Assembly: GCA_050298055.1 (NCBI GenBank)
Contig: JBNKTL010000002.1
Coordinates: forward strand, 64,001-128,000
Source of the DNA: Spirochaetota bacterium
GTDB lineage: Bacteria > Spirochaetota > UBA4802 > UBA5550
Reading direction: 5' to 3'
DNA: 64,000 nt
Positions 8,838 through 56,830 of the stretch are shown here, piece by piece. Positions within the stretch are counted from its first letter, which is position 1. Every line of letters begins with the position of its first letter. The notes beneath the pieces are model-generated. The model was not told where the DNA came from. It did not search any database and saw only the letters and a program-made list of their open reading frames with translations. The position numbers were made by a program, and so were the translations under genes.

Positions 8838-8972
8838 GTAACAACACAGCTCTGTATTAAGAATAATATTCAATAAAAAAGATAACTGATATCCCCGCCG
8901 CCTTCGGCGGGGGGATATTTTGCTGATATTTTGGTAAATAAGTTTATTTTGGCCATATAGCAGAGAAGTTAC
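8838..8972 (+). mobile_element. MITE-like element, copy 1
   Basis: Ends GTAACAACACAGC...GCAGAGAAGTTAC; central hairpin ATATCCCCGCCGCC-TTC-GGCGGGGGGATAT; flanks AATAACTT/AATGATTT (6/8 match). Confidence 0.8.
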
Positions 8973-8981
8973 AATGATTTT

Positions 8982-9350
8982 TTATTTAACAAATTCAGAT
9001 ATCAGGTCAACAAAACTTTCTGGATTAATAGGTTTTTCGATATATCCTTCACAGCCTGAATGCAGAATCTCCTCCCTGTCCCCGGCCATTGCATAGGATG
9101 TGACGGCAACAAGGGGTATTTCCGCCGTTATTTCGTCGTCTTTTAACCTGCGGGCAACATCATAACCATCCATTTCCGGCAGTTGAATATCCAAAAGAAT
9201 AAGGTCCGGCACAACCTCAACAGCCTTGGCAATCCCCTCTTTCCCGTCACGGGCCTGGACAACGGTAAATCCATGCTTCTCCAGCAGGTAAGTGACCATG
9301 TAGATATTCTGCTCATTGTCTTCTATGACAAGGATTTTATTCTTTTTCAT
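8982..9350 (-). CDS. Single-domain response regulator (DivK-like)
   Basis: VIEDN, LILLDIQLPEMDG and YIEKPI; overlaps the stop of the upstream kinase. Confidence 0.93.
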   Translation of the reverse strand: MKKNKILVIEDNEQNIYMVTYLLEKHGFTVVQARDGKEGIAKAVEVVPDLILLDIQLPEMDGYDVARRLKDDEITAEIPLVAVTSYAMAGDREEILHSGCEGYIEKPINPESFVDLISEFVK

Positions 9351-12300
9351 TCACATCCTCCCTTACGATTGGAACAGCAAAACTGAAGGTACTTCCCCTG
9401 CCAGGCTGACTTTCAACCCATATTTCACCACCCATCATCTCAATGATACGCCTGCATATTGAGAGACCCAGTCCTGTACCCTCATACACCCTGTTCGTCC
9501 CGGCATCAAGCTGGTGAAAGGGCAGGAAGAGTTCCGGAATACTCTCTTCACTAATTCCAATACCGGTGTCCTTCACCACTATCTCAAGCCTGCTTCCGTT
9601 TTTTCTGCCTGATAAAGTTATTTCTCCCCGGCCGGTAAATTTTACCGCGTTATTCAGGAGATTAATCAATACCTGGCTTAAGCGGCGCCTGTCCCCGTTT
9701 ATTATTCCAATATCCCCGTCAACATAGGCGTTTATTTCAAGCCCCTTTTTTTCTGCCTGGGGTTTCAGTATCTCGATGACCTCATTTATTAATTTCTGCA
9801 CATCAAATGTCTCATTTATCAGTTTAAACTCTCCCGCCTCAATTTTTGAGATGTCAAGTACATCATTAATGAGATTGAGAAGATGCTGCGAACTTCCTTT
9901 TACGATCTTAAGCTGTTTCTTCTGTTCGAAGTTCAGGGGGCCTGCCATCTCCATAAGAAGAATACTGTTAAATCCCATAATGGAATTGAGGGGTGTTCTT
10001 AATTCATGGCTCATGGTTGCCAGAAAGGCACTTTTGGCACGGTTTGCGGTTTCCGCAGCATCCCTGGCTTTTACAAGCTCTTTATCAGCCTTGACCCGCT
10101 GTTCAATTTCCCGGGAAAGCCTCCGGTTCCAGTATATAACCAGAGAAAGGACAATAATTGAAGGAATAAGTATTTTCCAGAAAAGGGAATAATCAAAGCC
10201 ATGCTCATATTTAACCGATATCCACTTTTTATAAATCTCATTCTGCCGTGTCTCAGGTATTGCATCCAGGGCCTTCTGTAAAATACCGGCAAAAAGGGGC
10301 CAGTCTGACCGGACACCCATTGACAGCTTATATGTGTAGGGTGTCTCCCCGGAAACTTTAATTGTACCGAACTGAAGTTTTCCGAGATAGTAGCTCCCTA
10401 CAAGGATGCTCCCGATACAGGCATGAACTTCCCCTTTCTCAAGCTTTTCAAAAGCCTCCTCTATGGTCCCGGTTAAAACAAGTTTAATTTTCGGGAAATC
10501 ATCTGTAATCCACTCTTCAACTGCGTACTTTTTCACAACGGCAACCTTTCTGCCTTCCAGTTCATTCATACTTCCAATATAATTTATATCATTACGGGTA
10601 AAGATCACAACCGGCATTGAAATGTATGGCTGGGTAAACCTCAGAGAGTCTGAGCGTTGCGGTGTCTTCACTACGGACGTGACCAGATCTATCTCTTTTT
10701 TTCTTGCCCTGTTCATAATTTCCTGCCAGTTAAGGTCCCTGGCCGGTTCAAACCTGATGCCGAGCATCTTCTCCAGTATCTTCGTGTATTCAGCTGTGAT
10801 CCCTCCGGGATTGCCCTTCTTATCAATGAACTCAACAGGTGCCCACCCGGAATCACTGGCTGTTCTTATTGAGGGGTGGGTTTCCAGCCAGGACCATTCG
10901 CTGTCAGAAAGTGATACTCTTAATCTGCTGCCGTTTATTCCTGCAGGACCCGTAACTCCCGGAAGCCATTTTCTGAAAATTTCGATCTTCCTGTTTTCAG
11001 GGATTGAATCAAGGGCTTTTTCAAGAATCGATACCAGTTCAGGCCACTCTTTTCGGACCGCAAACCTGAGCCCCCTGGTCCTCATGTCGTAGTTACCGGC
11101 TACATTGAGATTGGTTATACCATATTTATTGCTGAGATAGACATTAACACCAAGGACTCCAACAAAGGCATCTGATTCACCGGTTGAGACTGACCTCAGC
11201 CCGTCAAGGGGAGTATCAACCATATATTTTTTTACACCGGGATGTTCACTTACAACACGGTCTGACAAGGGATCTCTCCTCACAAGGGCAACCCTGTTGC
11301 CATCCAGGTCTGCGGGGATACTGATTCTTCTTCCTCCGGTCCGCGTCATTATTACCAGGGGAGTGGGAATATAGATCCCGGTAAAGTCGAGGGACTTATT
11401 TCTTTCAGTTGTTTTATCAGCAGCGGCAAACAGATCAATTTTCCCCTTCCCTTTGTCATCCGGCATTTCGGACCGGCTCAAACCGGGCACTCTCTTCATT
11501 CTGATCCCGGTAATAATGCCCAGCTGCCTGACAAAATCCATTGCAATACCCTGGTATTCCCCATTACCGTTGATAAAGCTGTAAGGTGCAAAATTTTCAT
11601 TCACCCCGAGATTGATCTCACTGTGCCTTCTGAGCCAGATCCTCTCTCTCTGAGAAAGTTTTCTGTAGTAAAAATCCACATAAGAGGGCAGCTGGATATC
11701 CGCCATAAGCCAGCGTTTCCTTATTGATGCATGTTCCTGTTCCGTGAGAGAATCCAGGGCCCGGTTAATGAGCTTTACAAAGACAGGCCAGTCTTTTCTC
11801 ACTGCAAAGGCCAGGGGAAAGAGTTCGTCAGATGCATATCCTGCAACCTTAAGATTCGTAAGGGCCAGGTCCTGTATCAGCCTGGTTGATACGGCCATAT
11901 TACCGATGACGGCATCCATTTCTCCCCGTGAAAGCGCGATCATGGCTTCCCTGAAAGTCCCGAAAAGGACCGGTTTTATCTTTGTATTCTCTTTTATAAA
12001 TCCATGATGGGAACTGTTTATCTGGACTGCCACATTTTTTCTCCCCAGATCATCCAGGGACCTGGTAGCGGATTCTCTCCGGGTAATGATCACCCGGGGA
12101 AATGCGAGATAGGGTCTTGAATACTCAAAGAACTTTTTCCTCTCACCGGTAATTCCCACACAGGAGAGAGCATCTATCTTCCGTTTCTTTGCCCACTCAA
12201 TTGTCCTGCTCCAGTCAGGTGCGGTTACCGGGACCAGGGATATCCCCAGCCTGCTGCTTATGAGCCTCACATAATCAGCTGCTGCCCCCCTGTATATCCC

Positions 12301-14247: not shown

Positions 14248-14387
14248 GGAACTACTCTGATATGCATAAGAATAACCATGTTCATAAAAAAAGAGAACTG
14301 ATATGTCCCCGCCGCCCAAGGCGGCAGGGACATATTGTTTATATTTTACTAAACAGGCTGATTATAGCCATATAGCTGAATAGATAC
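14248..14387 (+). mobile_element. MITE-like element, copy 2
   Basis: Ends GGAACTACTCTGATAT...ATAGCTGAATAGATAC; hairpin ATATGTCCCCGCCGCC-CAA-GGCGGCAGGGACATAT; flanks CTTTACCG/CTTTATAG (6/8). Confidence 0.85.
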
Positions 14388-14416: not shown

Positions 14417-17400
14417 ATGAAAACAGCACACAGGATTATCATATATATGATTCTGAGCTTTCTCCTGCTTATTGAGTGCGGAGGAGGTTTCGCAATAAAA
14501 GACGGAGGTGTGGATCTCGGTTCATATAATAAATACCGGAAAGAAAACGGTACCCTTGATTTCAGTAAAATCGAAGATTCCTCTCCCCTTGAAATTGTTC
14601 TGCAGCAGGCCCATACAAAACGAGTGGATGATATGGCGGTCTCCCCCGACGGTAAATTTGTTGTTACCGCGTCCTATGACAATACAATAAGAATCTGGGA
14701 CCTGAAAGGCACCCTTATCCGGAATATCAAACCTGATTTTCTCTATCCCCACGATATAAACCTGAAAATAACCCCTGACGGGAGCAGGATCATTGCGCGT
14801 CTCTTTAAAAGCTGGTTCAATAACAAAAAGAAGAAGAGCGAAAAAGAGGGCGTTATCTACGAATACAGCATGGGAGGCAAACTGATAAAGAAACTTGATC
14901 CCGTTGAAGAAAGAATCGGAAATTATAATATCAGCCCCGACGGAAAATATATTGTAAGCTATAACTGGAACACGAAAGACAGGAAGGACAATACCTGGTA
15001 TAACTATATTCACCTCAGGGACAGGAACTGGAAGATCATAAAGTCATTTAAAATGGGAAGCAGCTGGCCCCTCTATTTTGTTGATTTTACTCCTGACAGC
15101 AAGCATCTCATAGCATGCAGAACATATAAGAACCGTGACGGCTGGATGTCCTACGCCGGCATATGGGACTTTCAGGGAAGGCTTATAAAAGACCTGGAAC
15201 TGAAAAAACCCCTGGGGATCGGTGAATCGGAAGAGGACCGGGATTTTATCAAGAGTTCGGCACTGGTAAACTTCGATAAAACCGGCAGGATGCTTGCGAT
15301 TATCGGAATAAACGGCAGGATAAACATCAGGAGCATGGACGGGAAGCTCATAAGGAAGATGGAGACCCGGCTGGAAATGCCCCACTGGCAGAGAACCAAT
15401 CTCCTCAGTATCGGCTTTTCCCCCGATGGAAAGGATATCTGGATCGGTAGTAAAGGAAACATAGAAGTCCTGGACAGCCGCGGCATGAGGAAACAGAAAA
15501 TACGTTTGGGGGATGTCTGGCCAATCAGGTTTACCCCCGACAAAAAGCACATCATCGGCGCCACACCGGACGGTGACCTGAAAATATGGGACAGCAGGGG
15601 CATCCTGGAACAGGAAGTCTCAAACCCCAACCTGGAAATATCCGAGTTAACCGTATCACCGGACAGCAGGAGAATTATATGTGAATTTGAAAGGTCGAGA
15701 CAGACCAGCTACAAACGCTCCCTGATCTGGGATGTTGCGGAAAACAGCTTTAACTATATCGAAGGGGAAGCCGGCTTTGTTAAGGGCGACAGGGAATACA
15801 GAATAATCAACGGCAGGCTTGCCGCGGTGGACAGAAGGTTCATGCTCACTCAAAAAACAAAAGACCTGGACTACAACAGGTACTTCTTCATTCCTGACGG
15901 AAAGATCGCAAAAATTAAGGGAAGCATGCATCTTTACTACACCATCATGATCTATAATCCCGACGGTTCCCCTTACCAGACAATACATATCGGGCTTAAG
16001 TCTTCTGCGCAGAGGTTCAGGTTCAGTCCCGACGGAGAGTATTTTGCTCTTTATAAGGGTTCCGTCTACAGAAAATCCCTTGAGCTTTACAGCAGACCCA
16101 AGGGAAAAATCATAAAACAATTCACGTTTGACCATGAAAAAACCATCTATGGACTGGCAATTGGCCCCGAAAGTGAATATATTGCCGCCGGGTATGGCGG
16201 CGGGGATATTGATATCTGGGAGCGAAGCGGGGGAAAGCTCACCACACTCCGTGGCCACAATATGAGAGTGCTGGGTCTTGCATTTACATCTGACAGAAAA
16301 TTTCTCGTGTCCTCCTCCCAGGACAAAACAATCCGCGTGTGGAATATTAAAACCGGGGAATCTGTTACCATAATGGCATTTGATGCTGACAGATGGGTTG
16401 CCTACGACCGGGACGGCCGATTTGACTGTTCAACACGGGGACGGGACTATGTTAAATTCGTTAAAGGATTTTCAGTATTCAGTTTTCAACAGTTCTGGAA
16501 TGATTTCTATACCCCCGGGCTCATCGCACGATTCATGGGAGGCAGGAAGTTCCGGAAACTCAATATAATGAGAAAGGTCAATAACGCACCCCGTGTCACA
16601 GTTGAAACAGTGAAGAAAACCATCAGGGAATCGGAAGCCAAAACCGCAACAATCAAGGTATGCGCAGAGGCCCGGGATAACGGGATTGGCGAGATATTCC
16701 TCTTCCATAACGGGAGAGCTGTTGGTGAAAAGACACGGGGCCTTCAGGTTAAAGGGATTGGAGGATGTAAAAATTTTACCGTTCAGCTCTTACCCGGCGA
16801 AAACTCTTTTTCCGGCGCGGCATACGACAAAGAAAACCTCGTCTATGGCAGGAGCGGCGAAAAAAATATCCGCTTCATACCCCGCGAGATCAAAAAACCG
16901 AATATGTATATACTGGCAGCGGGAGTCAGCAGGTACAGGGACAGAAACCTGAATCTCGGTTCCCCGGCTGATGATGCAAACGCGGTATCCCGTACGTTCA
17001 GTTCAACCGCGTCCACCCTTTACGGGGAAGTAAAAGGGATAACTCTTGTCAACAGCAGAGCAACCGCCCGTAATATTAAAGCCGCAATGAATAAAATTGC
17101 CGAATCTGCGGAGAAATCGGATACGATTATACTCTTCTTCGCAGGCCACGGTGACACTGAGAAGGGCACCTATTACTACCTCCCCTACGATGCCGATATC
17201 ACAAACCTTGACAAAACATCTCTCTCAATTAATATAATCAACTCAGCTGTACGCAGGTTCCCGGCAAATAAAATTGCCATATTTTTTGATACATGTAAAA
17301 GCGGCGCCGCGACCAGGAGCCTGAGCATCATTGCCCTGGAGAGAGGTTACGAAGACAGAAAGATCATTGCGAACCTGGCCAAGGAGAGGGGAATTGTGGT

Positions 17401-17656
17401 ATTTTCCGCTTCAAGTAAAACAGAGTCCGCCTATGAAATAAAGAGCCTGAAACATGGGATATTCACATACTGCCTTCTTGACGCCCTCAACAACAGACGA
17501 TCTGAGATATCAAACGGAAACCTGATCAGCATTGGTAAACTCCTGAGTTTTGTAAACAGGGAAACACGGGAGATTGCTTTTAAACATCTGAAAATTGAAC
17601 AGACTCCCATCATCTACATATTCGGACATGATTTCAGTCTTGGAAGGATTGATTAA
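14417..17656 (+). CDS. WD40-repeat protein with C-terminal caspase-like (peptidase C14) domain; putative lipoprotein
   Basis: Many WD40 repeats (AHTKRV...SPDG...ASYDNTIRIWD; GHNMRV...SSSQDKTIRVWN); catalytic dyad motifs FFAGHG and FDTCKSG; HGIFT; signal sequence ending LLLIEC. Confidence 0.9.
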   Translation: MKTAHRIIIYMILSFLLLIECGGGFAIKDGGVDLGSYNKYRKENGTLDFSKIEDSSPLEIVLQQAHTKRVDDMAVSPDGKFVVTASYDNTIRIWDLKGTLIRNIKPDFLYPHDINLKITPDGSRIIARLFKSWFNNKKKKSEKEGVIYEYSMGGKLIKKLDPVEERIGNYNISPDGKYIVSYNWNTKDRKDNTWYNYIHLRDRNWKIIKSFKMGSSWPLYFVDFTPDSKHLIACRTYKNRDGWMSYAGIWDFQGRLIKDLELKKPLGIGESEEDRDFIKSSALVNFDKTGRMLAIIGINGRINIRSMDGKLIRKMETRLEMPHWQRTNLLSIGFSPDGKDIWIGSKGNIEVLDSRGMRKQKIRLGDVWPIRFTPDKKHIIGATPDGDLKIWDSRGILEQEVSNPNLEISELTVSPDSRRIICEFERSRQTSYKRSLIWDVAENSFNYIEGEAGFVKGDREYRIINGRLAAVDRRFMLTQKTKDLDYNRYFFIPDGKIAKIKGSMHLYYTIMIYNPDGSPYQTIHIGLKSSAQRFRFSPDGEYFALYKGSVYRKSLELYSRPKGKIIKQFTFDHEKTIYGLAIGPESEYIAAGYGGGDIDIWERSGGKLTTLRGHNMRVLGLAFTSDRKFLVSSSQDKTIRVWNIKTGESVTIMAFDADRWVAYDRDGRFDCSTRGRDYVKFVKGFSVFSFQQFWNDFYTPGLIARFMGGRKFRKLNIMRKVNNAPRVTVETVKKTIRESEAKTATIKVCAEARDNGIGEIFLFHNGRAVGEKTRGLQVKGIGGCKNFTVQLLPGENSFSGAAYDKENLVYGRSGEKNIRFIPREIKKPNMYILAAGVSRYRDRNLNLGSPADDANAVSRTFSSTASTLYGEVKGITLVNSRATARNIKAAMNKIAESAEKSDTIILFFAGHGDTEKGTYYYLPYDADITNLDKTSLSINIINSAVRRFPANKIAIFFDTCKSGAATRSLSIIALERGYEDRKIIANLAKERGIVVFSASSKTESAYEIKSLKHGIFTYCLLDALNNRRSEISNGNLISIGKLLSFVNRETREIAFKHLKIEQTPIIYIFGHDFSLGRID

Positions 17657-20073: not shown

Positions 20074-20212
20074 GTTACTATTCAGTTATATGGCTATAAT
20101 CAACCTATTGACTAAAATATAAACAATATGTCCCCACCGCCGAAGACGGCGGGGACATGCCGGTTAGCTTTTTAATGAATATGATTGTTCTTAAACATAG
20201 TTGAGTAGTTAC
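20074..20212 (-). mobile_element. MITE-like element, copy 3 (reverse orientation)
   Basis: Ends GTTACTATTCAGTTAT...ATAGTTGAGTAGTTAC; hairpin ATGTCCCCACCGCC-GAA-GACGGCGGGGACAT; flanks CAATTCAG/CAATATAA (5/8). Confidence 0.85.
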
Positions 20213-28393: not shown

Positions 28394-28466
28394 GTTTCTA
28401 CTCAGCTATTTGGCACAAACAAACATATTAAAAAAATATCAACAATATCTCCCCGCTAAAGATATT
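28394..28466 (-). mobile_element. Truncated, degenerate copy of the MITE-like element
   Basis: GTTTCTACTCAGCTATTTGGC...AAAATATCAACAATATCTCCCCGC aligns with the first half of copy 3. The hairpin is collapsed and the second terminus is not seen. Confidence 0.6.
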
Positions 28467-34274: not shown

Positions 34275-34394
34275 GTGACGACTTAAGCACAGCAGAGATA
34301 TTTCTAATCACTCCCCTCTGCCTTCACCGGAGGAGACAAGTTATTAATATTTTTATCGGGATGTGTGTTTTTAACCATACTACTGAGTTGTCAC
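34275..34394 (+). mobile_element. MITE-like element, copy 4 (diverged)
   Basis: Ends GTGACGACTT...GAGTTGTCAC; decayed hairpin CTCCCCTCTGCC-TTC-ACCGGAGGAG; flanks GAACCGAT/AAACCGAT (7/8). Confidence 0.7.
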
Positions 34395-43755: not shown

Positions 43756-43763
43756 CATCTATT

Positions 43764-43901
43764 CTAACTACTCAGCTATGTTTAAAAATAATCATTAATC
43801 AAAAAATAAAACTGATATGTCACCGCCGCCGAAGGCGGCTATGACATATTGCTGGTATTTTAGTAAATAGGTTAATAATAGCAATATTGCCGAGTAGTTA
43901 C
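43764..43901 (+). mobile_element. MITE-like element, copy 5 (perfect 8-bp target duplication)
   Basis: Ends CTAACTACTCAGC...GCCGAGTAGTTAC; CATCTATT at 43756-43763 and 43902-43909; hairpin ATATGTCACCGCCGCC-GAA-GGCGGCTATGACATAT. Confidence 0.9.
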
Positions 43902-43904
43902 CAT

Positions 43905-44789
43905 CTATTTCTTTTTTGGCTCTTTATTAAAATTGTTTATAAGGGCGGTGAAACGCTTACCCAGCCCGTTTATTTCATTTCCTTTTGCAGTCAGATCCAT
44001 AAGAATTTTATGGGATGTCATTCCGGGGCCCGCCCAGAACCCGCCCTTTTCCCCTGCCTCCCTCCTGAAATCTTCCGCAATACCGGTCATCTCTCTGTTT
44101 TTTACTTTTATCTGTTTCATGAGATCTTCCATCTGAACAAGGAGTCCCCTCTTTTCATTTATTACTTTTTTATTGTATCCCTTTGCTTCAAGATCCCTGA
44201 GATTTGCATAAGCATTTTTAATGTTTTTTCCCGAATCCGACAAAATCTTTAAAACCTGTTTATTAAACTGGTCTATCTTTCCGCTGATTTTTGCGCTGTT
44301 TATCTTTGTTATCTTATATTTTTCTGCAGTGGATGCAAATGCTTTCGATGCTGCGCTGTATTCCCCGGATTCTTTTACGAACATTTTAACATCATTTTCA
44401 AACCTTTTGTTCAGGTCATGGTACTTCTTCCACGCAGGATTGTTGGACTGAATCTTTTTCCTTGGGCCTGCAATTCTGTTAAATTCCTTTTTCTGTCCAT
44501 GAAAGACGGCCCTTCTCCCTTTCATTTTATCCAGGGCCTTTTTCATATTATCCAGATGATTTTGAAGAAGCGGATAAGGCTGATTTTTCCTGTCAACATA
44601 GGGGACAATGGAGCCGTAGACCTCCTTCTTGCTGTTATAATCACCGGCAGCTTTTTTAATACTGATGTTTGATTGCTTAATAACCTTATTAAATCTGCCC
44701 CTTATATCAGAAGATTTATAATAGCGAACACACCCGTTCGGTCCGGCTATCAAGAGAACGAAGAAAGCAAGTATCAATTTTCTGTTCAT
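43905..44789 (-). CDS. Coiled-coil putative lipoprotein, function unknown
   Basis: MNRKLILAFFVLLIAGPNGC lipoprotein-like signal; GAGGAGG RBS; Lys-rich helical body. Confidence 0.7.
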   Translation of the reverse strand: MNRKLILAFFVLLIAGPNGCVRYYKSSDIRGRFNKVIKQSNISIKKAAGDYNSKKEVYGSIVPYVDRKNQPYPLLQNHLDNMKKALDKMKGRRAVFHGQKKEFNRIAGPRKKIQSNNPAWKKYHDLNKRFENDVKMFVKESGEYSAASKAFASTAEKYKITKINSAKISGKIDQFNKQVLKILSDSGKNIKNAYANLRDLEAKGYNKKVINEKRGLLVQMEDLMKQIKVKNREMTGIAEDFRREAGEKGGFWAGPGMTSHKILMDLTAKGNEINGLGKRFTALINNFNKEPKKK

Positions 44790-45254: not shown

Positions 45255-45264
45255 TAAATCCGGA

Positions 45265-45293
45265 TCTCTGTCAATGATATTCATTGACAGAGA
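45265..45293. promoter_or_regulatory. Perfect 13-bp inverted repeat containing TTGACA on both strands
   Basis: TCTCTGTCAATGA-TAT-TCATTGACAGAGA between the DUF6122 and HAD genes. Confidence 0.6.
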
Positions 45294-45332
45294 AGTGTAT
45301 TAAAGATTAATAAAAGCAAACAGGAGATAACT

Positions 45333-46019: not shown

Positions 46020-46031
46020 ATCTTTCTGTCT

Positions 46032-47609
46032 TCATCTCTTTTTTCTGCGCAACCTTTTGTAAAGATAGACAGCCTCATCTGCTTTCATCAACAGGCTGGC
46101 AGCCAAATAGCTTATCCCGCCCCCTGCAACCATGAGAACAAGAACACCTGCTTTAACCGGCAGTGAGCTCCCCCCCCAGTCCGCAGTGATTGCAATACTC
46201 CTCACCGCATAAGCCATTACCATTCCCGAAACAAGAAATTTAAAGAAGGATCTGAGTACCGGGAAAAGCCTGATACCTCCGGCAAGTCTGTTCAGCCATA
46301 TGAGGAGAAGGAACATCTGTGCGGTTGCCGCCAGGGAACCTGCAAGTGCCAGGCCCGCATGTTTCAGTGAGGTCTGCATAAGGAAAGCACCCGATACAAC
46401 ATAGACCAAAAGTGCCGCTGCTGCGGAGAGTGCGGGTTTCTTCGATTCCTTGAGTGAAAAAAAAGCCGGAATGGTAATCCTGTTTACAGATATGGCCGAT
46501 ATCCCAATACTGGCGTAAAAAAGAGCCTTTGCAGTCAACTTTGCTTCTGTATGAGCAAATTCGCCCCGCATGAAGAGTACCGATATTATGGGAAAACCTA
46601 TTGTCATGAGCGCAAGAGATGCCGGTACCGCCAGGTAGAGTGCTGATTTCAGCGAACGCGTATAGAGTTCCCTGAACCTCTCCATATTATCAGACGCAGT
46701 CAACCGGGACATCTCGGGAAGGATCACATTGCCGATGGATATAATAAATACACCCAGTACAATCTCGGTCAGCCTGTCTGCATAGTAGAGATAGGAAATA
46801 CTTCCCGAATCCAGCGTTGAGGCCATTACTGTTCCTATGAGTATGTTTATCTGTATTATTCCGTTGGCGAAAAAAGCCGGCGCCAGCAGCCTGTAGATCT
46901 TTTTAAGCTGGGGGTGGCTGAAATTAATACTTACCTTCAGCCTGAAGCCGGACTTAACCAGATAAGGGATCTGAAGAATTAATTGGAATAATCCGCCAAA
47001 GAGAACACCTGCCGAAACCCCGTAGAGCGGCTCATCAAAAAAACGGCTGAAAACCAGGATCCCGGATATCATTCCCACATTGAGAAGCACAGGGGAAAAG
47101 GCAGGTGCGAAGAAATAGCCGTGAGAATTGAGGATTCCCATGGAGAATGCCACAAATCCCACAAAAAAAAGATAGGGAAACATGACCCTGTTCAGGTCCA
47201 CGGCAAGACCAAAGGATTCACTTCCCCTGAAACCGTAACCAATGACGCCGATAATTTCAGGTGAAAATATTATTCCCAGGTATATAAGCGCGGCAATAAC
47301 CAGCATCTGCAGAGTCAATGCCCGTGAAGCAAGATCCCCGGCTTCCTTCTCACCGTCATTCATAAGCACTTCGGTGTAAACCGGGATAAAGGATATTGTG
47401 AGTGTCCCCTCGGCAACAAACCTTCTCAGCATATTGGGGATCCTGAACGCAACAAAAAACGCATCTGTGGCCCCACTTGCACCGAAGACCGCAGCCATAA
47501 GCATGTCCCGGATAAAACCGAGTACCCTGCTGGCAAGTGTTGATGCGGCAACAACACCTGTTGACCTGACCACACTGGATGATTTCTTAATTCCCGTTGA
47601 CTTATCCAT
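46032..47609 (-). CDS. murJ: Lipid II flippase MurJ (MviN)
   Basis: SRVLGFIRD, DAFFVAFRIPNMLRRFVAEG and YYADRL; many TM helices. Confidence 0.95.
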   Translation of the reverse strand: MDKSTGIKKSSSVVRSTGVVAASTLASRVLGFIRDMLMAAVFGASGATDAFFVAFRIPNMLRRFVAEGTLTISFIPVYTEVLMNDGEKEAGDLASRALTLQMLVIAALIYLGIIFSPEIIGVIGYGFRGSESFGLAVDLNRVMFPYLFFVGFVAFSMGILNSHGYFFAPAFSPVLLNVGMISGILVFSRFFDEPLYGVSAGVLFGGLFQLILQIPYLVKSGFRLKVSINFSHPQLKKIYRLLAPAFFANGIIQINILIGTVMASTLDSGSISYLYYADRLTEIVLGVFIISIGNVILPEMSRLTASDNMERFRELYTRSLKSALYLAVPASLALMTIGFPIISVLFMRGEFAHTEAKLTAKALFYASIGISAISVNRITIPAFFSLKESKKPALSAAAALLVYVVSGAFLMQTSLKHAGLALAGSLAATAQMFLLLIWLNRLAGGIRLFPVLRSFFKFLVSGMVMAYAVRSIAITADWGGSSLPVKAGVLVLMVAGGGISYLAASLLMKADEAVYLYKRLRRKKR

Positions 47610-47840
47610 TTAAGCTCATTCCTGTTAAAAACCTGAAATGTCCCGTTCACAACACTATTTCCCGGCATCCTGTAGTCAAACAATTATTCAATTACAACCC
47701 TGTGCTGTTTACGGTAAATATTAATCTAATATATCTTGACAAATGGCACCATTAACGGGAAACTTCAAAATCACGGTTTTCCGGTATATATTGCTCTCAT
47801 GCAGAGAATCCTCAAAAAATCTGGTACTATTTAATTAAAT

Positions 47841-49391
47841 ATGAACAAAAATAAATTGAAAATTATCCTGGCTTTCTTTCTTCTCATCTTCCCCCTGGTG
47901 TCCCTGCACGCAGGATATTACAACAGGGGCAGGACACAGTTTGTCTACAAAAACTATGATAAGGCTAAGGAGATGTTCCTGAAGGCGGTAGAAAAACATG
48001 AACATGGAGATTCCTACTACTTCCTTGGTGAGATCGAAAAGCTGCAGAAAAATTATAAACAGGCAATGGAATATTACCAGAAAGCCGCAACGCTGCATAC
48101 GACGAAGAAATATAAAAAGAACGCTTTCTGGAACCTCATTGTCCTTGCGGAGATGAGCGGAGACTATGATAACCTGGTAAAAACGAGCCTCTATCTCTGG
48201 AAAAAGCTCAAGGACAACGGCGCCAGGAAAAAAATTGAGGGTATTATCAACAAGTCACTCTGGACAGACAACCCGGAAGCAGTGGCAAAATATAAAGCCG
48301 GAATAAGACTAAAAAAAAGAAAAAAATTTGACGAAGCAGAAGTTAAATTTCGTGAAGCAGTATCAATTGAGCCTGCATTCCTTGCTCCAAAATTTGAACT
48401 GGGCATGTCTGCATACAAAAAAGGGGAAACCTCAACGGCCCTGAACTACCTGGAGGATATTTCCAATAAGATCCCCTTTTACGCGGAGGTCCATATGATA
48501 ATGGCCGATATCTATTTCAATAACAGGAATTATGAAAAAGCGGCATGGCACTTTGACAGGGCCATAGAATACGGTTTCATAAAGGGGAAAACCAGGTACC
48601 TGCTCAGGCTCAAGAGAGGAACATCCTACTATAACACGGGGAACCTGGAAAAGGCCAGGGAGGATATCGACTACGCAGTTAATTATCATAAAAAGTCCCT
48701 GGAGCCCCTGCTGCTTCTCTCAGCTATAAACATCAAGCTCAATGACTATGATGGGGCACTCAGGGCCCTTTTGAAAGCATCGAAAATTGACAACAACAAC
48801 CCGGTCATCATATACAAAATCGGGAGTATCTACTACAAGAAGGATGACTGGCGGTCTGTTTCCTATTTTGACCGGTTATTCGATATGACAGTCAAGGGAG
48901 ATAAAAAGTCGAACAGCAGGTATTTAAGGGCCTTTGAGATACTGGCAGAAAAACACTTTGCCCGAAAAAACTACGGCAGAGTTCTGGAGATCACCGGTTC
49001 ACTGAAGGATGAGCTGAACAATTACAAAATACTCCTCATAAAAGCAAAATCATATTTTTATACCGCACAGTATGATCACGCAGTGGATATTTTTGAAAAG
49101 CTCTCACTTGATAATGAGAACAGGTTTATGCTCTGCAAGGCTTATTACCTGAGCAAAAGAAAAGAGAAGGCGGAAGAACTCCTGAAGTCTTTAATAAACC
49201 ATGACGAATATTATAAAAAGGCAAAAGAACACAGCTTTCTTTCAAAGCTTGTAAAAAAAATTGAAAAAGAGAAGCTTGATAAAGAACTGAGAGAAAAGGC
49301 CGAGTTAGAAAAGAACAGGCTGGAGAATACAGCTCCCCGGGAGAAGAGTACCGGGGAACAGGAAAAGAGTCATACCAGTGAGAGGAGATAA
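47841..49391 (+). CDS. Secreted TPR-repeat protein
   Basis: Signal peptide and multiple 34-aa TPR-like repeats. Confidence 0.8.
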   Translation: MNKNKLKIILAFFLLIFPLVSLHAGYYNRGRTQFVYKNYDKAKEMFLKAVEKHEHGDSYYFLGEIEKLQKNYKQAMEYYQKAATLHTTKKYKKNAFWNLIVLAEMSGDYDNLVKTSLYLWKKLKDNGARKKIEGIINKSLWTDNPEAVAKYKAGIRLKKRKKFDEAEVKFREAVSIEPAFLAPKFELGMSAYKKGETSTALNYLEDISNKIPFYAEVHMIMADIYFNNRNYEKAAWHFDRAIEYGFIKGKTRYLLRLKRGTSYYNTGNLEKAREDIDYAVNYHKKSLEPLLLLSAINIKLNDYDGALRALLKASKIDNNNPVIIYKIGSIYYKKDDWRSVSYFDRLFDMTVKGDKKSNSRYLRAFEILAEKHFARKNYGRVLEITGSLKDELNNYKILLIKAKSYFYTAQYDHAVDIFEKLSLDNENRFMLCKAYYLSKRKEKAEELLKSLINHDEYYKKAKEHSFLSKLVKKIEKEKLDKELREKAELEKNRLENTAPREKSTGEQEKSHTSERR

Positions 49392-49394
49392 TGC

Positions 49395-50297
49395 TTGAGC
49401 AGAGAAGTGAACAAATATGTTAAGCACAGTCCCCGTAATTCTGTTATCGCATTAATACTCCTCGCTGCAGCGTACATTATTAATTATACATTTCATGCAG
49501 GTCCGGTACTCCTGCTCCTCTATTCACTGGGTTCCCTCTTTTATGTTATCTATATAAAAATCAACAGTATCGGTTACAGGTATAACTCCGATTATATACA
49601 GTCAGGAGAAGCATCTGTTGCTCTGCTGGCAATAATTGCCGTAAGCAGCCGGTTATCTGAAAACCTCTCTCTTCTCTTCCCTGCCGTGGTCCTCATTGTT
49701 TTTCTGTCTGATATTTTTTTCAACAGGGTGCTTATCAAAAAGGGATCCGAAGCATGCACAGCGGGTATCTATATAAATATCTTTTCCGCAGTACTCCTTG
49801 TTTTCTCAGTTTTCAAAATACCCGGTTTTAACAGCAGTCTTATTACAAAAGTCCTTCTGGGATATTTGACTCTGCCGAATCCCGAACCTCTCTTTCTGGT
49901 CATCCCGGCAACACTTGCTTTGCTTTCTGCACTGCTTTACCTCATTCTGAAACCCGAACTTCTTTTATTTTCCCACGGCCCCGCCTATTTCAGGTCTGTG
50001 AGAATAAACTACACAGGGCTCAGGCTCATTGTGACATTCTTCAGATCCGTAGTGTTTACAGCGGCATTTTTCCTTACCGGAATTGCCGGGGGTACGGCAC
50101 TCTATTACCACAGGCCCGGAAAGGAGGGCCTGTACCAGCTGGAGTTTATAATGATAACCCTTGCCTATACACAGCTTATTGTGATGGTTTCACTTTTTTA
50201 TGGGAAAGTACCGGCATCTGCGCTCTCCATAGCAGCATCATACATTCTCTACTTACTCTTAATGAGAAGAAGGATTTACCTCTATGATAGAAATTAA
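49395..50297 (+). CDS. Polytopic membrane protein, possibly a divergent FecCD-type ABC permease
   Basis: About 9 TM helices; coupled to the downstream ABC ATPase; only weak FecCD resemblance. Confidence 0.55.
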   Translation: MSREVNKYVKHSPRNSVIALILLAAAYIINYTFHAGPVLLLLYSLGSLFYVIYIKINSIGYRYNSDYIQSGEASVALLAIIAVSSRLSENLSLLFPAVVLIVFLSDIFFNRVLIKKGSEACTAGIYINIFSAVLLVFSVFKIPGFNSSLITKVLLGYLTLPNPEPLFLVIPATLALLSALLYLILKPELLLFSHGPAYFRSVRINYTGLRLIVTFFRSVVFTAAFFLTGIAGGTALYYHRPGKEGLYQLEFIMITLAYTQLIVMVSLFYGKVPASALSIAASYILYLLLMRRRIYLYDRN

Positions 50298-51057
50298 AAA
50301 CCTCAATTTCACTTACAATGACAGGCATCTGTTGAAAAACATTAACCTCGCACTCAACGACGGTGAGATTATCGGTATCACCGGGAGGGGGGGCTGCGGA
50401 AAGAGTCTCCTCTTAAAGATACTGGCAGCCGTCATTAAAGAATACCAGGGCGAAGTCCTGCACAACGGCAGGAAACTGATCTCATATATGAGAAGCGATC
50501 TGCAGAAGATCATTTCATATATGGACGGGAAAACACCGGACAATCCCGATGACTCGGTCTATAATTTTTCTCTCCTTTCACGGATCACCTACAAGAGCAT
50601 GCTCAAGCCCTTTTCTGATTACGACATACAGGTTACCGAAGATTATCTCAAGGCCCTTGATCTTGAATCCATAGGTGACAGGAAACTGGGAACACTCTCT
50701 GACAGCCTGATGAAATCCGTAAGACTTGCACACTCATTTATCAGGGAAGGAGAAGTCCTTGTTCTGGATGATCCCACGGAAAGTTTAAGCATCTATACAA
50801 CCGCCCTCATAAGGAAACTCATATTAAAATACACACTCAACGGGGACAGGATCGTGGTAATGGCTTCCCACGATCTCAACTTTCTTCTGCAGACTGCCGA
50901 CAGGATAATCATTATGGACGAGGGAACCGTTTACGAAGACGGCCCCCCCCATATGGTTGATGCCGATTGCGTGAAGAAGTATTTCGGGGCTGATGTTCTG
51001 ATCTCCAGAAATATCTATAACGGGAAACCGGAGGTGCATATTTTCCCGGAAGATTAA
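50284..51057 (+). CDS. ABC ATP-binding protein, FepC/FecE-like, with degenerate motifs
   Basis: Walker A GRGGCGKS, Walker B VLVLDDP, H-loop ASHDLN; signature reads LSDSL. Confidence 0.85.
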   Translation: MIEIKNLNFTYNDRHLLKNINLALNDGEIIGITGRGGCGKSLLLKILAAVIKEYQGEVLHNGRKLISYMRSDLQKIISYMDGKTPDNPDDSVYNFSLLSRITYKSMLKPFSDYDIQVTEDYLKALDLESIGDRKLGTLSDSLMKSVRLAHSFIREGEVLVLDDPTESLSIYTTALIRKLILKYTLNGDRIVVMASHDLNFLLQTADRIIIMDEGTVYEDGPPHMVDADCVKKYFGADVLISRNIYNGKPEVHIFPED

Positions 51058-51070
51058 CCGGCGGGACGTT

Positions 51071-51421
51071 TTACTCCGCGTAGTGTTTAATCTTTGTTAT
51101 ACCCTCTTCGGGACTGTCGGCAAAGATAAGGGCTGAATACGCTTCAAGAGTATCGGTAAGATTAATAAGTTCATCACTGGGCCACATAATGATAAGTCTC
51201 TCCCCGTTCTCCTTGGCAAAATAGGAAAGATCAATAAGGGATGTAATCCCGGCTGTGGTGATCATAACCACATTAGACATATTGAGTATCAGGCTCTCTT
51301 TGTCTATTATTGATTTTACTGCAATTTCAAAACCGCTGATAGTGTTTGAATTGAGGTTCCCCGCGAGGTCCATTATCTTTATTCCGCCATAGTCCCGCAT
51401 TGTATAATTAATGACATTCAT
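51071..51421 (-). CDS. STAS-domain protein (anti-sigma-factor antagonist-like)
   Basis: MDLAGNLN...LILNMSNVVMITTAGITSL. Confidence 0.8.
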   Translation of the reverse strand: MNVINYTMRDYGGIKIMDLAGNLNSNTISGFEIAVKSIIDKESLILNMSNVVMITTAGITSLIDLSYFAKENGERLIIMWPSDELINLTDTLEAYSALIFADSPEEGITKIKHYAE

Positions 51422-51433
51422 AATAATAAATTC

Positions 51434-51564
51434 CTGACTACTCAGATATGACTCATTATCTCAATTAAAAAAACTAACCGATATATCCCCGCCGCCTTCG
51501 GCGGCGGGGATATATTGTTGATCTTTTATAAGATAAGTAAATTTTAGCCATATTAAATAGATAC
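51434..51564 (+). mobile_element. MITE-like element, copy 6
   Basis: Ends CTGACTACTCAGATAT...AAATAGATAC; perfect 16-bp stem ATATATCCCCGCCGCC-TTC-GGCGGCGGGGATATAT; flanks ATAAATTC/AATAATTC (6/8). Confidence 0.85.
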
Positions 51565-51570
51565 AATAAT

Positions 51571-52647
51571 TCAGGCGAAGAGACCTGAAAGGACCTCTTT
51601 TAATAATTTTTCATCAACCTCAATATTGAATTCCGGGTGAAACATTCCCCTGAGTAAGACAAATTTTATCTTTCCCCCGTAGTTTTTCTTGTCAAATTTC
51701 ATATGGTCAATAAGCTTCTCCGGATCAAGCCTGTCGATTCTATTGAACAACCGGTACTTTTCAACAAGTTTTTCCGCAAATTCAATATCAGCCTCTTTGA
51801 TCCATCCCATTCTTCCGGATATCTTCATTGCCGCAACAATCCCCATTGCCACTGCCCGTCCATGGGAGATACCGCTGTATTCCATAAGAGATTCCACTGA
51901 ATGGGCAGTAGTATGCCCGAAGTTCAGTATCGCCCTCCTGCCGCTCTCCTTTTCATCACCGGAAACAACAGATGCCTTGAATGCCACATTTCTTTCTACA
52001 AGCTCTTCCATCACGGATGTATTAAGAATACTCTCAAGATCATGATCAGCAAGAATGTTGAGAGTCCTCTCTTCACCCAGAAGACCATGTTTCAGGACTT
52101 CGGAAAGCCCGTTTTTAAGTTCATCTTCAGGGAGGGTTTCCAGAAACCTCATGTCGCTTGCAACCATTACCGGCTGATGGAAAGCACCGGCCATGTTCTT
52201 CCCATGGGAAAGGTTGACTGCGACCTTGCCTCCTATGCTTGAATCGACCATGGCAAGCAGAGTTGTGGGAACCTGGATTACGGAAATACCCCTCATAAAG
52301 AGGGCCGCAAGATATCCCGCAAAATCTCCCACAACACCTCCGCCTATGGCAACAACAAGCGACTTTCTGCTGAGGCCGCTTTCAATAAACTTCTCCAGAA
52401 AGCCGCCGGCATAGCCGTAATTTTTATTTTTTTCAGAATCATCCATGAGAAAGGTGGTGCATTCTCCGAAAAAATCCAGGGAATCCTCAATATAATCCCT
52501 GTGCAGAGAAAAGACCCGTGAGCTTCCAACCAGTACAATCCTGTCAGGAGTAAGTTTGTCAACAATAGCATTTACCCGGTTAAGTGATGATTCTCCGATG
52601 ACCGCACTGTAACTCTTTTCACCTGTTGAGACAACAAGTTCTTTCAC
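51571..52647 (-). CDS. aroB: 3-dehydroquinate synthase
   Basis: GGGVVGDFAG, PTTLLAMVDSSIGGK, KNMAGAFHQP and LNFGHT. Confidence 0.95.
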   Translation of the reverse strand: MKELVVSTGEKSYSAVIGESSLNRVNAIVDKLTPDRIVLVGSSRVFSLHRDYIEDSLDFFGECTTFLMDDSEKNKNYGYAGGFLEKFIESGLSRKSLVVAIGGGVVGDFAGYLAALFMRGISVIQVPTTLLAMVDSSIGGKVAVNLSHGKNMAGAFHQPVMVASDMRFLETLPEDELKNGLSEVLKHGLLGEERTLNILADHDLESILNTSVMEELVERNVAFKASVVSGDEKESGRRAILNFGHTTAHSVESLMEYSGISHGRAVAMGIVAAMKISGRMGWIKEADIEFAEKLVEKYRLFNRIDRLDPEKLIDHMKFDKKNYGGKIKFVLLRGMFHPEFNIEVDEKLLKEVLSGLFA

Positions 52648-55074: not shown

Positions 55075-55076
55075 AC

Positions 55077-56756
55077 CTATTCTTTATCTTCCAGTTTAAT
55101 ATCTACAAAATCGCCAAGAGTGGCCTTTCGTGATCCTGTGTTATCCAGTATCTTTTTAAGCTCTTCCTTCTCCGATTTTATTTCGAACTGTTTGATGCTC
55201 AATGAAAGCCTTTTCTTCTCAACATCAACACCGAGAACTGTTGCCTGCAGGCTCTCACCTTCCTTAAAATGATCTTCCAGGTTCTCTATCCTCGATGTTG
55301 ATACCTCGGATACGTGAACAAGCCCTTCTACATTCTCCTCAAGCTTGAGGAAGATACCGAACTGGGTTATACCTGAGATAACTCCGTCAACAATAGTCCC
55401 GGGCCTGTACTTTTCACTGATAACTTCCCAGGGTGACTTGGTAAGCTGCTTGATACCGCAGGAGATCCTCATCTCGGATTTGTTGATGTCAAGTATCTTG
55501 ACTTCAACCTCATCGTTAACCTTATAGAGGTCCGCGGCATCTTTCTTTTCATCACTCCAGGAGAGATCAGATACATGCACAAGTCCGTCAATATCATTTT
55601 CAAGCTCAACAAACATACCGAACTTAACGATCTTTTTGACCTTCTTTTTATGCACCGAACCAACCGGGAATTTCTCTTCAATTGTATCCCAGGGATTTTC
55701 AAGAAGCTGCTTCATTCCAAGAAGTATTCTCTTCTCCTCTTTGTTTACTTCGAGAATAGTAAGCTCCGCCATTTCTCCCTTTTTAAAGTAATCAAAAGCA
55801 TTGGGATTGTTCTTTGTCCAGGAAATATCAGAACTCCTTACAAATCCGTCTATGTCTTCATCAACCTCAATAAAGGCACCTGTATTGATAATGGTTATCA
55901 CCTTTCCGGAAATCCTGTCACCCACCTTATATCTTTCATCTATGTTCAGCCAGGGATCTTCCTTAAGCTGCTTGAGGCCAAGGGATATCTTGTGATCGGC
56001 TTCATTGATATCCAGAATTAAAAATTCCCTCTCCTCACCAAGCTTGAGGATTTTCCTCTGCTTAAAAACATTCTTCCATGACATGTCATTCCTGTGAAGA
56101 AGAGCATCGATCCCCTCAATCCTGATAAAAGCACCAAACTCCACAAACTTTACCGGCTCGCCCTTTATCCTGTCACCCGCCTTGTAATTTGCCAGGAAGT
56201 TATCCCAGACCTCCTTATTTCTTGAATCCAGGAAGTCCTTTCTCGAGAGAATGACCGATTTTTTCTTGGGATTTATACTGTTGATAATGAATTCATATTC
56301 TTCTTCTGATGAAGAGATTTTTTTGAGATCAGCGGCCAGTGAATAAGGAAGAAACGCCGTAAGATTTTCACATTCAACTATTTTCCCTTTTTTCGTAGCA
56401 CTGCTTATTTTTCCCTTAATTGCGTGAGCATCTTCTTTATATGTTTCAAGGAAACTCTGCCAGCGTTTCTCGGTATCAGCTGCGATCTTTGAAAACTGGT
56501 AAACTCCGTCCACAAGTCTTCTGCTCTGCAGCATGACATCGATCACATCCCCCACCTGAGGTTTCTCATCGAACTCCTCAAGTGAAATGCCGCCATCAGA
56601 TTTAATTCCAACATTTACATAAGCATATTCTGAATCAATTGTTACAATCTCGCCCCTTACTATCTTACCGGGCTGAATGCTATCCAAAGCAGAGTCTGCA
56701 ACATGTTCCATATTTATTGCATCAACCGCTTCACTGTTTTCTTCTCTATGGTCCAT
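55077..56756 (-). CDS. rpsA: 30S ribosomal protein S1
   Basis: Repeated S1 domains (FGAFI, DGLVHVSDLSW, SLGLKQL..DPW); downstream of cmk. Confidence 0.95.
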   Translation of the reverse strand: MDHREENSEAVDAINMEHVADSALDSIQPGKIVRGEIVTIDSEYAYVNVGIKSDGGISLEEFDEKPQVGDVIDVMLQSRRLVDGVYQFSKIAADTEKRWQSFLETYKEDAHAIKGKISSATKKGKIVECENLTAFLPYSLAADLKKISSSEEEYEFIINSINPKKKSVILSRKDFLDSRNKEVWDNFLANYKAGDRIKGEPVKFVEFGAFIRIEGIDALLHRNDMSWKNVFKQRKILKLGEEREFLILDINEADHKISLGLKQLKEDPWLNIDERYKVGDRISGKVITIINTGAFIEVDEDIDGFVRSSDISWTKNNPNAFDYFKKGEMAELTILEVNKEEKRILLGMKQLLENPWDTIEEKFPVGSVHKKKVKKIVKFGMFVELENDIDGLVHVSDLSWSDEKKDAADLYKVNDEVEVKILDINKSEMRISCGIKQLTKSPWEVISEKYRPGTIVDGVISGITQFGIFLKLEENVEGLVHVSEVSTSRIENLEDHFKEGESLQATVLGVDVEKKRLSLSIKQFEIKSEKEELKKILDNTGSRKATLGDFVDIKLEDKE

Positions 56757-56788
56757 AACCAACCATCCCTAAAATATTAACTTTTTTT

Positions 56789-56830
56789 GTAACTACTCCG
56801 CTATCAGCAAGAATATATCTAAGTAGTTAC
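56789..56830 (+). mobile_element. 42-bp internally deleted mini-copy of the MITE family in the rpsA leader
   Basis: GTAACTACTCCGCTAT...TATATCTAAGTAGTTAC; flanks CTTTTTTT/ATTTTTTT. Confidence 0.7.

Follow-up and report, generated by a model that had tools for sequence, protein, structure and literature searches.

The window, the whole 64,000-nucleotide stretch of DNA analysed here, contains eight copies of a short, gene-less element that carries the termini of the ISBst12 group of IS66 insertion sequences and, in most copies, a GC-rich central hairpin. About 415 non-overlapping copies are present genome-wide. Our preferred reading, to which we assign a probability of about 0.75, is that an IS66 transposase mobilised these elements, that the hairpin is an older, captured passenger, and that template switching has acted on it after insertion.

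The family makes up 1.0% of the genome's DNA, and the genome-wide count that an earlier note on this DNA had proposed gave 415 matches against 0 in the reversed genome. The elements are short (~140 bp), lack coding capacity, and end in terminal inverted repeats, and so belong with the MITEs. The earlier note had also expected an excess of 8-bp flanking repeats, which is present: among 74 intact copies, 36 have flanks that match at 7-8 of 8 positions (0.7 expected from shuffled flanks), mean flank identity at 8 bp is 0.78 (0.39 shuffled), and the peak is sharp, with only 4/74 copies at 7 bp and 2/74 at 9 bp. Nearest-neighbour identity among copies has a median of 84% and a maximum of 95%. Together with the termini, the 8-bp duplications, and the hairpin, this divergence supports the earlier description of an old, heavily expanded, non-autonomous element of DDE type. 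Only 10 of the 415 copy centres lie inside ORFs (by crude ORF calls). Per AT-rich site, insertion is equal in tandem and divergent intergenic regions, whereas convergent regions are poor in copies (12 of the 385 classed; 3.2 vs 6.9 per 1000 AT-rich sites). In tandem regions the copies lie a median of 69 bp ahead of the next gene start. An apparent preference for promoter regions was mostly gone once AT-rich sites were normalised for, and a promoter scan at the 43764 copy found 1 site vs 1.1 in shuffles.

Table 1. Copies of the element, and features of selected copies, in the 64-kb window
Feature	Position	Strand	Flank match	Score
Full copy, 135 bp; loop TTC	8838..8972	+	6/8	E 6.9e-29
Full copy, 140 bp	14248..14387	+	6/8	E 1e-36
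Full copy, 139 bp; opposite orientation	20074..20212	-	5/8	E 3.2e-35
Right half only (model 77-139); break at hairpin centre	28394..28456	-		E 1.7e-7
Decayed copy, 120 bp; opposite orientation, without hairpin	34275..34394	-	7/8	E 6.7e-7
Target duplication CATCTATT, 8 bp, left of 43764 copy	43756..43763	+		
Full copy, 138 bp; loop GAA, convergent genes either side	43764..43901	+	8/8	E 8.1e-31
Central hairpin of 43764 copy; differs from the common form by one paired change and a 2x2 internal mismatch	43815..43849	.		
Target duplication CATCTATT, 8 bp, right of 43764 copy	43902..43909	+		
Full copy, 131 bp; eroded right terminus	51434..51564	+	6/8	E 3.3e-25
Hairpin of 51434 copy; perfect 16 pairs, loop TTC, one outer-stem paired change	51481..51515	.		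z -6.3
Mini copy, 42 bp; two termini without interior, rpsA downstream	56789..56830	.	7/8, within T run	

All eight items of the earlier note were recovered where it had placed them (Table 1), as were the 8-bp repeats around the full copies, perfect at 43764 and matching at 5-7/8 in the other five. Five copies have the strong hairpin it described (folding against shuffles, z -2.9 to -6.3), and the hairpin is decayed at 34275 (z -0.43). Two details did not stand: the 12-bp terminus core that it gave matches no window terminus exactly, and position 8 of its terminus consensus is C, not Y, in the genome-wide consensus. Copies aligned by their arms differ in the hairpin loop, which is GAA in some of them and TTC in others. 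The window had been described as free of transposases, and none occurs among the 29 of its 95 ORFs that were scanned; genome-wide matches to IS66, Y1, and IS4 all lie on contigs other than the window's. An Rfam scan of the window gave no match, nor did a blastn search of a plasmid collection with the 43764 copy as query. A terminus-like match at 2157, inside an ORF and lacking a partner terminus, was set aside as chance. In four DNA sequencing runs covering 33500-52500, no contig bridges any copy, which carries little weight because X1 is possibly the source itself and X1-X3 belong to one study. Neither an empty orthologous site nor a transposition event was seen in the material covered. Runs X2 and X3 have a loose contig end at 43899.

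The 16-bp terminus of the element, GTAACTACTCAGCTAT, also forms both ends of a multicopy, single-ORF IS66 element (ISBst12 group) in the same genome. The earlier note had left the terminus without an IS family and suggested a search for a transposase ORF bounded by the same ends; the IS66 pieces of this genome start with the element's 16-mer, and the terminus is assigned, from end identity, to the single-ORF ISBst12 group. These pieces comprise left ends on contigs C74, C75, and C91 and right ends on C43 and C73; every one of them lies at a contig break, they are 100% identical to one another, and the 8-bp flank AAAAATTA is common to the left end on C75 and the right end on C43. Both IS66 pieces are open frames with IS66 matches, and the middle of the IS, where its catalytic aspartates would lie, is absent from the assembly. 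Each is 76% identical to L032, a complete 1510-bp IS66 element with the same ends and a single 471-aa ORF, which scores 301.8 bits against NF033517 (cut-off 180). The partner's ORF begins 79 bp from the left end, and there are no accessory genes. The three-gene IS66 elements L001 and L002 were rejected as partners because their ends differ (GTAAGCGTC and GTAACCGTC).

The described ISBst12-group element ISDge4 (PMC12898284) is bounded by GTGACTACTCAGCA and GTAACTGCTCAGCA, carries a single ORF of 449 aa, and has an 8-bp repeat. Against each of these two ends, the element's terminus matches at 12 of 14 bases; ISBst12-group ends of the type GTAACTRCTCAGC, as in ISDge4, are present on it, and 13 of its first 13-14 bases match related elements in databases. 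The 8-bp duplication and the single-ORF partner (~470 aa in 1.5 kb) are further likenesses to the group as described there. In contrast to ISs of this group, the window element lacks a transposase, is 140 bp long, and is present in ~415 copies. Its interior is unrelated to that of the IS, which sets it apart from the internal-deletion forms found at C6:102525 and in genome G021. Mobilisation was likely effected in trans by the putative IS66 partner, mostly long ago. Since the copies are old (closest pair 95%) and the IS copies identical, today's IS66 may be only a relative of the original mobiliser.

The hairpin has a wider distribution than the IS66 ends. Its exact core, CCGCCGCC-GAA-GGCGGCGG, is present in 28 of 63 other genomes of the family; of 96 occurrences fetched, 41 lie within IS4-type ends, 17 within IS5-type, and 6 within IS66-type, 7 have one end, and 25 have no end that was recognised. 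Duplications around these shells peak at 9 bp (IS4-type), 3 bp (IS5-type), and 8 bp (IS66-type), the 3-bp signal being weak (0.81 vs 0.67 shuffled, maximum 0.79; 14 copies). Each of the three end types matches an autonomous IS. The IS4-type partner, L389 (163 bits, cut-off 115; 9-bp duplication), was obtained with profile NF033592 across 122 genomes; profile PF01609 in five relatives did not recover it, and an exact-match scan of metagenomes with the IS4-type terminus returned three MITEs beside mostly chance matches, and inspection by eye showed no transposase. The IS5-like shell is matched by L409, a DDE_Tnp_4 element with a 3-bp duplication, whose only profile matches are PF13359, PF13613, and, below cut-off, IS5; ISL2 is a tentative label for it. 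Long pairs of termini considered as ISs (four in G011, two in G013/G004) proved to be neighbouring MITEs.

Inside the IS4-type shell the arms are homologous (per-arm z 3.8-7.8), and inside the IS5-type shell they mostly are (z 1.6-7.1). Between shells, homology is not clear (one pair reaches z 3.0/2.9), nor could homology be detected among IS66-type arms from different genera. Two or three core-bearing shell types occur within single genomes, nested insertions are visible in relatives, and a single locus, L432, is a possible two-shell hybrid. The composite element of the earlier note stands in part, in another way: the hairpin is a module common to MITEs of two other IS families, whereas a REP/HUH component is unsupported by the 36 Y1/RAYT loci examined. 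In related bacteria the hairpin recurs within mini-transposons that belong to two unrelated families of transposase, where it is likely to be a passenger that was captured.

Conservation at G/C sites is 90% in the inner stem, 82% in the termini, and 72% in the arms, and this holds in 135 copies picked by their ends only; the stem is conserved to the same degree whether the neighbouring genes are divergent or in tandem. Pairing in the main core extends down to its foot. In the inner stem the sequence itself is conserved between genera and paired changes are few, whereas the outer stem varies between genera and keeps pairing alone. Transversion-type paired changes in the outer stem number 31 vs 2.9 expected (termini, 52 vs 42.9), where the counts are of copies rather than events and include some inherited variants. 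The loop (TTC in 68 copies, GAA in 54) requires 37 changes on the arm tree vs 40.2 when shuffled; a stem variant requires 15 vs 24.9. In young IS4-type shells loop orientation is almost fixed (29/31). Copies without a hairpin have breakpoints scattered as for deletions rather than a single empty junction. The lasting stem, the paired changes, and the ancestry-independent loop flips fit DNA template switching, a mechanism described in PMC8794818, better than RNA selection, but the inner stem changes so little that template switching alone is insufficient as an explanation.

In the course of events that we propose, an IS66 transposase, acting in trans, would likely have copied ~140-bp elements into AT-rich intergenic sites, leaving 8-bp duplications. 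The central hairpin would be a passenger older than the IS66 shell. It probably passed among IS66, IS4, and IS5-like ends as elements inserted into one another's AT-rich arms, after which deletions would have trimmed the nested composites. Following insertion, replication template switching across the palindrome would likely keep the stem paired and flip the 3-base loop, and may sometimes delete the hairpin.

The hairpin might instead be a mobile REP-like unit that a RAYT/HUH enzyme or another small nuclease put, either way round, into the centre of pre-existing MITE shells. The two loop orientations and the recurrence of the core in three shells without clear arm homology are in keeping with this; other REP-like interiors, among them CGTC-type dimers, occur in the IS66 shell as well, and REP dimers inserted into long palindromes are described in Anabaena and Halothiobacillus (PMC3733652). 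The genome has seven Y1 genes, and a palindrome next to one of them (L006) shares the 10-mer CCGAAGGCGG. The REP/HUH link made in the earlier note is nevertheless unsupported, since the core was not found at any of the 36 Y1/RAYT loci examined (which include the genome's own 7 and are 36 of ~290 family matches) and neither a GTAG nor a CGTC tag accompanies the main core. TGTC-tagged units occur only in a minor subfamily, and the 16 copies with CGTC-type cargo have flanks that match at only 1-5/8. Absence of target duplication and enrichment downstream of genes, both REP traits, are not what is seen here, given the 8-bp duplication and the few copies between convergent genes. In this genome 198 of 243 cores are tied to an IS66 terminus at the expected distance (4/243 in a shifted control), and this, the scattered breakpoints, and the near-fixed loop orientation in young IS4-type shells leave independent movement of the hairpin unlikely.

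Retention of the hairpin for transposition or DNA binding is a little less likely again. Here a cruciform, a bend, or a bound dimeric protein would join ends 100-140 bp apart; by letting close ends meet, it would lead unrelated transposases each to amplify those variants in which it had been captured. All three shells have the core at their centre, and their lengths (~98, 120, and 141 bp) are roughly two helical turns apart, although these are three values noticed post hoc, and the sequence-conserved inner stem, the pairing-only outer stem, and the indifference of stem conservation to transcription context also point this way. Yet good duplications also flank IS66 shells of many lengths (68 to 526 bp) that enclose a different interior or lack one, and help in transposition leaves conservation after insertion unexplained. 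A speculative reading, to which we allow a minor chance, makes the 19-bp GAA-tipped palindrome a hitch-hiking cis-element, independently adopted by the ends of three unrelated DDE families within one order, that would promote the transposition of very short elements or bind a specific protein. REP-type repeats and whole small-nuclease cassettes are gathered by the same IS ends as well. If so, REPs without a transposase of their own (CGTC type) would gain a DDE route of spread. It is very unlikely that host-domesticated copies are under RNA selection as terminators or mRNA stabilisers. In its favour, conservation is higher in the stem than in the termini, copies lie close ahead of genes in tandem regions, and MITE hairpins acting on mRNA are cited in PMC3733652. 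But on the transcribed strand stem G-U mismatches are not in excess over A-C (123 vs 105, P 0.26), loop orientation is random with respect to transcription (46 vs 41), a terminator pattern (U tract) was not found at the 43764 copy, convergent gene pairs are poor in copies, and the stem is conserved just as well between divergent genes.

Taken by itself, the element is mobile DNA of an unremarkable sort, and its transposase family has now been assigned. It resembles the prokaryotic MITEs ERIC (up to 711 copies per genome), Correia, QMITE2 (which includes a GTAG REP), and Chunjie in being short and intergenic, with termini, a duplication, high copy number, and many truncated copies (PMC10969869); IS66 is nowhere mentioned in that review. 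The less ordinary part is one GC-rich hairpin within IS66, IS4, and IS5-like ends, and no report of a core common to shells of three IS families was found in that review or in the literature searched. Because each of these ends has its own duplication length and autonomous partner, the sequences argue that capture of a foreign interior is one way in which bacterial MITEs can originate, besides internal deletion of an IS. The shared core is also a simple test case for whether an interior hairpin aids the movement of short elements. As a caution, strong paired changes in a hairpin can originate at the DNA level and do not necessarily imply a functional RNA.

As in the Anabaena GTAG-15 and Halothiobacillus CGTC-1 families, REP dimers inside long palindromes (PMC3733652), a palindromic unit here lies regularly within a longer inverted repeat, and the minor subfamily, a TGTC-tagged dimer with CCA-like tails, fits the CGTC type as described in the text of that paper. 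Unlike those dimers, the main core is a single hairpin without a GTAG or CGTC tag, and the enclosing repeats can be assigned to named IS families through their autonomous partners and their duplications. What moves CGTC repeats is a question raised and left in PMC3733652; the present family touches on it, with CGTC-cargo copies that lack clear duplications. Passenger DNA between IS66 ends also recalls the transporter ISs (tIS), described as confined to IS1595 and IS66 (TnCentral, 10.1101/2021.05.26.445724), from which the window element differs in being gene-less. A 505-bp element in genome G004, with the same IS66 ends and a 7/8 duplication, has no transposase, also unlike a tIS, and encloses a complete PDDEXK_3 (PF13366) nuclease gene together with the repeats that flank it.

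The IS66-type MITE of this genome (G000) is real and well supported, and it is ordinary as a shell (i.e., termini and arms enclosing an interior); its new aspect is a self-correcting core, the central 19-bp hairpin, common to the shells of three transposase families. A search of the openly accessible literature, ISfinder apart, turned up no publication that places a single core inside the shells of three IS families. The available text of a 2024 MITE review (PMC10969869) has no mention of IS66, nor has that of the main article of a 183,232-genome census, whose supplements may list the family and which describes spirochaete genomes as MITE-rich (PMC11602168). Transporter ISs are described for IS66 in the TnCentral preprint (10.1101/2021.05.26.445724).

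All eight items claimed for the window, G000:C2:64001-128000, are present. Five hairpins fold with z-scores of -2.9 to -6.3, and the one at 34275, described as decayed, does not. Flanking 8-bp duplications had been claimed for the six full copies; these match at 6, 6, 5, 7, 8, and 6 of 8 positions, and a single one is perfect. A profile search of the assembly (4.7 Mb, 199 contigs) recovers 415 non-overlapping copies, or 1.0% of the DNA, versus none in the reversed genome. The family is heavily expanded, as the earlier note supposed; it is also old, with a median identity to consensus of 82% and a closest pair at 95%. Termini are scorable in 408 copies, and the duplication test used the 74 in which both lie within 3 mismatches. 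Flank identity at 8 bp is 0.78 in this set (0.39 shuffled), and 36 of the 74 match at 7–8 of 8 positions versus 0.7 shuffled, the excess that had been predicted; 7 or 9 bp gives little signal. Duplicated sites are AT-rich, without consensus. One contig in each of two sequencing runs (X2, X3) diverges to unrelated sequence just before window base 43899, within the right terminus, possibly through another insertion in a sister strain.

Copy centres fall within crudely called ORFs in 10 of 415 cases; by context, 207 are tandem, 166 divergent, 12 convergent, and 20 at contig edges. Density is 6.9 copies per 1000 AT-rich sites in both tandem and divergent regions (convergent, half), and thus target preference accounts for most of the promoter-region bias.

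Element copies, shells, and associated features
Feature	Position	Details
Truncated copy	window 28394	right half of element
Mini copy	window 56789	42-bp pair of termini
Gene adjoining 14248 copy	window 14417-17656	1079-aa protein; C-terminal caspase-like domain, below NCBIfam cut-off
Gene	window 23495-26908	1137-aa protein; partial kinase/cyclase fusion protein match, below cut-off
Fused termini	G000 C13:68578-68609	32-bp palindrome; perfect 8-bp duplication
Internal-deletion relic	G000 C6:102525-102705	181 bp; older ISBst12-type element, 80% identical to current left end
TGTC-dimer subfamily	G000 C29:23416, C58:26855, C28:39405, C66:5034, C21:3486	
IS4-type shell		120 bp, ending CAGTATTTATTCCT; 41/96 contexts
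IS5-type shell		98 bp, ending AGACTTGTTGCA; 17/96 contexts
IS66-type shell		142 bp; 6/96 contexts
Nuclease carrier	L275:1501-2005 (G004:C1:2008-2512)	505 bp; IS66-type ends, 7/8 duplication

The element terminus also occurs outside the 415 copies, among other places as identical left ends on C74, C75, and C91 and identical right ends on C43 and C73, all five running into contig breaks. An ORF begins 79 bp into the left end, and the right end closes an ORF. A search for a transposase ORF bounded by element ends had been proposed earlier; both pieces match the IS66 model, scoring below its cut-off as fragments would, and each is 76% identical to L032, a complete 1510-bp element with the same ends and one 471-aa ORF (301.8 bits; cut-off 180). 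The middle of the G000 IS66 is missing from the assembly, and the element is known from its end pieces only; C75-left and C43-right are flanked by a common 8-bp sequence and are therefore likely the two ends of one insertion. Among five other complete elements, duplications of 7–8/8 flank three but not the remaining two. Spirochaetes assemblies contain several close relatives of the transposase, and the host is probably an uncultured spirochaete. The single-ORF ISBst12 group of IS66 includes ISDge4, whose published ends are GTGACTACTCAGCA and GTAACTGCTCAGCA, with an ORF of 449 aa and a repeat of 8 bp (PMC12898284). Since it resembles this group in ends, 8-bp repeat, and single-ORF partner, the MITE is, judged by sequence, a non-autonomous derivative of the ISBst12 group, and its termini, once considered unassignable to any IS family, are placed there through the partner IS and ISDge4. 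We infer mobilisation by IS66 transposase; an IS66/ISBst12 enzyme would most likely have copied the element in trans, a strongly supported reading. Among four DNA sequencing runs aligned to window 33500-52500, no contig bridged a copy, and no empty orthologous site was found. The two three-gene IS66 elements of G000 are ruled out as partners, as their ends differ.

Among 63 further genomes of the family, 28 carry the exact core. In a sample of 401 genomes from the phylum, part of them with bases withheld, 17 have a 23-bp version; these 17 all belong to the order, and the 321 genomes outside it have none. The 96 distinct core contexts of relatives, a non-random sample, comprise the three shells of the table, 7 with one end, and 25 with no recognised end. 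Duplications peak at 9 bp for the IS4-type shell (31 copies; 0.84 vs 0.46), weakly at 3 bp for the IS5-type (14 copies; 0.81 vs 0.67), and at 8 bp for the IS66-type (6 copies). Each shell has an autonomous partner. For the IS4-type this is L389 (1232 bp; 163 bits vs cut-off 115), an IS4-family element whose ends match those of the shell and whose 9-bp duplication is perfect; at its site in G053:C69 it seems to have entered an arm of an IS5-type shell that has decayed; L387 carries the exact left end of the IS4-type shell. The IS5-type partner is L409, a 958-bp frameshifted DDE_Tnp_4 element with a 3-bp duplication, matched by the shell ends at 16/17 and 17/17 positions. Shells coexist in G052 (IS66-type, IS5-type, and one IS4-like copy) and G012 (IS66-type and IS4-type). 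Arms align across genera within the IS4-type shell and within the IS5-type; arm alignments reveal no clear homology between shells, or between IS66-type shells of different genera. Core and IS4-type arms also form short tandem arrays of 70–180-bp units in G001 (L059, L113-L115, L424-L426).

Conservation in 328 near-full G000 copies is 89–90% in the inner stem, 78% in the termini, and 78–79% in the arms. In 135 copies selected by ends alone, conservation at G/C sites falls from 90% for the stem to 82% for the termini and 72% for the arms, so detection bias does not account for the high stem value. The stem shows 181 paired changes (46.6 expected) and the termini 128 (106 expected). Transversion-type pairs, for which G-U is no possible intermediate, reach 31 in the outer stem (2.9 expected) and 9 in the inner stem (3.1 expected). 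All these figures are numbers of copies, and some of the variants are inherited. Relative to the arms, the loop reads TTC in 68 copies and GAA in 54. On an arm and terminus tree, loop orientation changes 37 times (40.2 with shuffled labels; P 0.17) and one stem variant 15 times (24.9 shuffled); the two are independent of each other. The signature described for template switching during replication (PMC8794818) consists of paired changes, an extended stem, and inverted loops; this process would keep the hairpin paired and flip its loop. Template switching by itself would predict more change in the inner stem than is seen in total, and a bound protein or another form of selection may also act there.

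That the hairpin aids synapsis or binds a protein might also fit the shell lengths (~98, 120, and 141 bp), which step by about two helical turns, three points noticed after the fact that may be coincidence. REP dimers have been described within long palindromes, with the mover of CGTC repeats left open (PMC3733652), and the earlier note had linked the hairpin to REP/HUH systems. Insertion of a REP by an HUH enzyme is not supported: the core is present at 0 of the 36 Y1 loci examined, out of about 290 family matches, and an IS66 terminus lies at the right distance from 198 of 243 cores. Seven Y1/RAYT-like genes (L005-L011) have their own flanking repeats, of the GCTCTGACCC type and two palindromic types. 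A domesticated RNA element would be under RNA selection, but a G-U strand excess is absent (123 vs 105), loop orientation is random relative to transcription, stem conservation is equal between divergent genes, and the 43764 copy shows no terminator pattern.

Most likely the hairpin is a passenger that IS ends of different kinds acquired as elements nested in one another and deletions followed, a route we infer from its end products. Nested insertions are seen in shell arms and at the hairpin tip; miniature elements lie in these positions in IS4-type and IS66-type shells (L234-L240 in G011 and G004; L284 in G011). L432 (G053:C22), which combines an IS4-like left end with an IS5-type right arm, has the appearance of a two-shell hybrid. 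In hairpin-less copies (~90–105 bp) the breakpoints are scattered, the pattern expected of deletions. Another IS4-family element (L254, G013:C103) starts directly at the stem foot, so the hairpin may also serve as an insertion target.

Other interiors occur within the same termini. In a minor G000 subfamily, a REP-like dimer with TGTC tags lies between the termini and outer arms of the element, at a fixed 34–37 bp from the left terminus and a variable distance from the right; a terminus lies near 12 of the 16 TGTC-tagged dimers of G000, yet the flanks match at 1–5 of 8 positions only. In G009, G053, and G017, repeats of further types lie between IS66-type ends. The nuclease carrier of G004 lacks a transposase and holds a whole PF13366 nuclease gene, which we take to be of the GxxExxY type, with its flanking repeats; shorter derivatives occur in G004 (L305) and G050 (L274).
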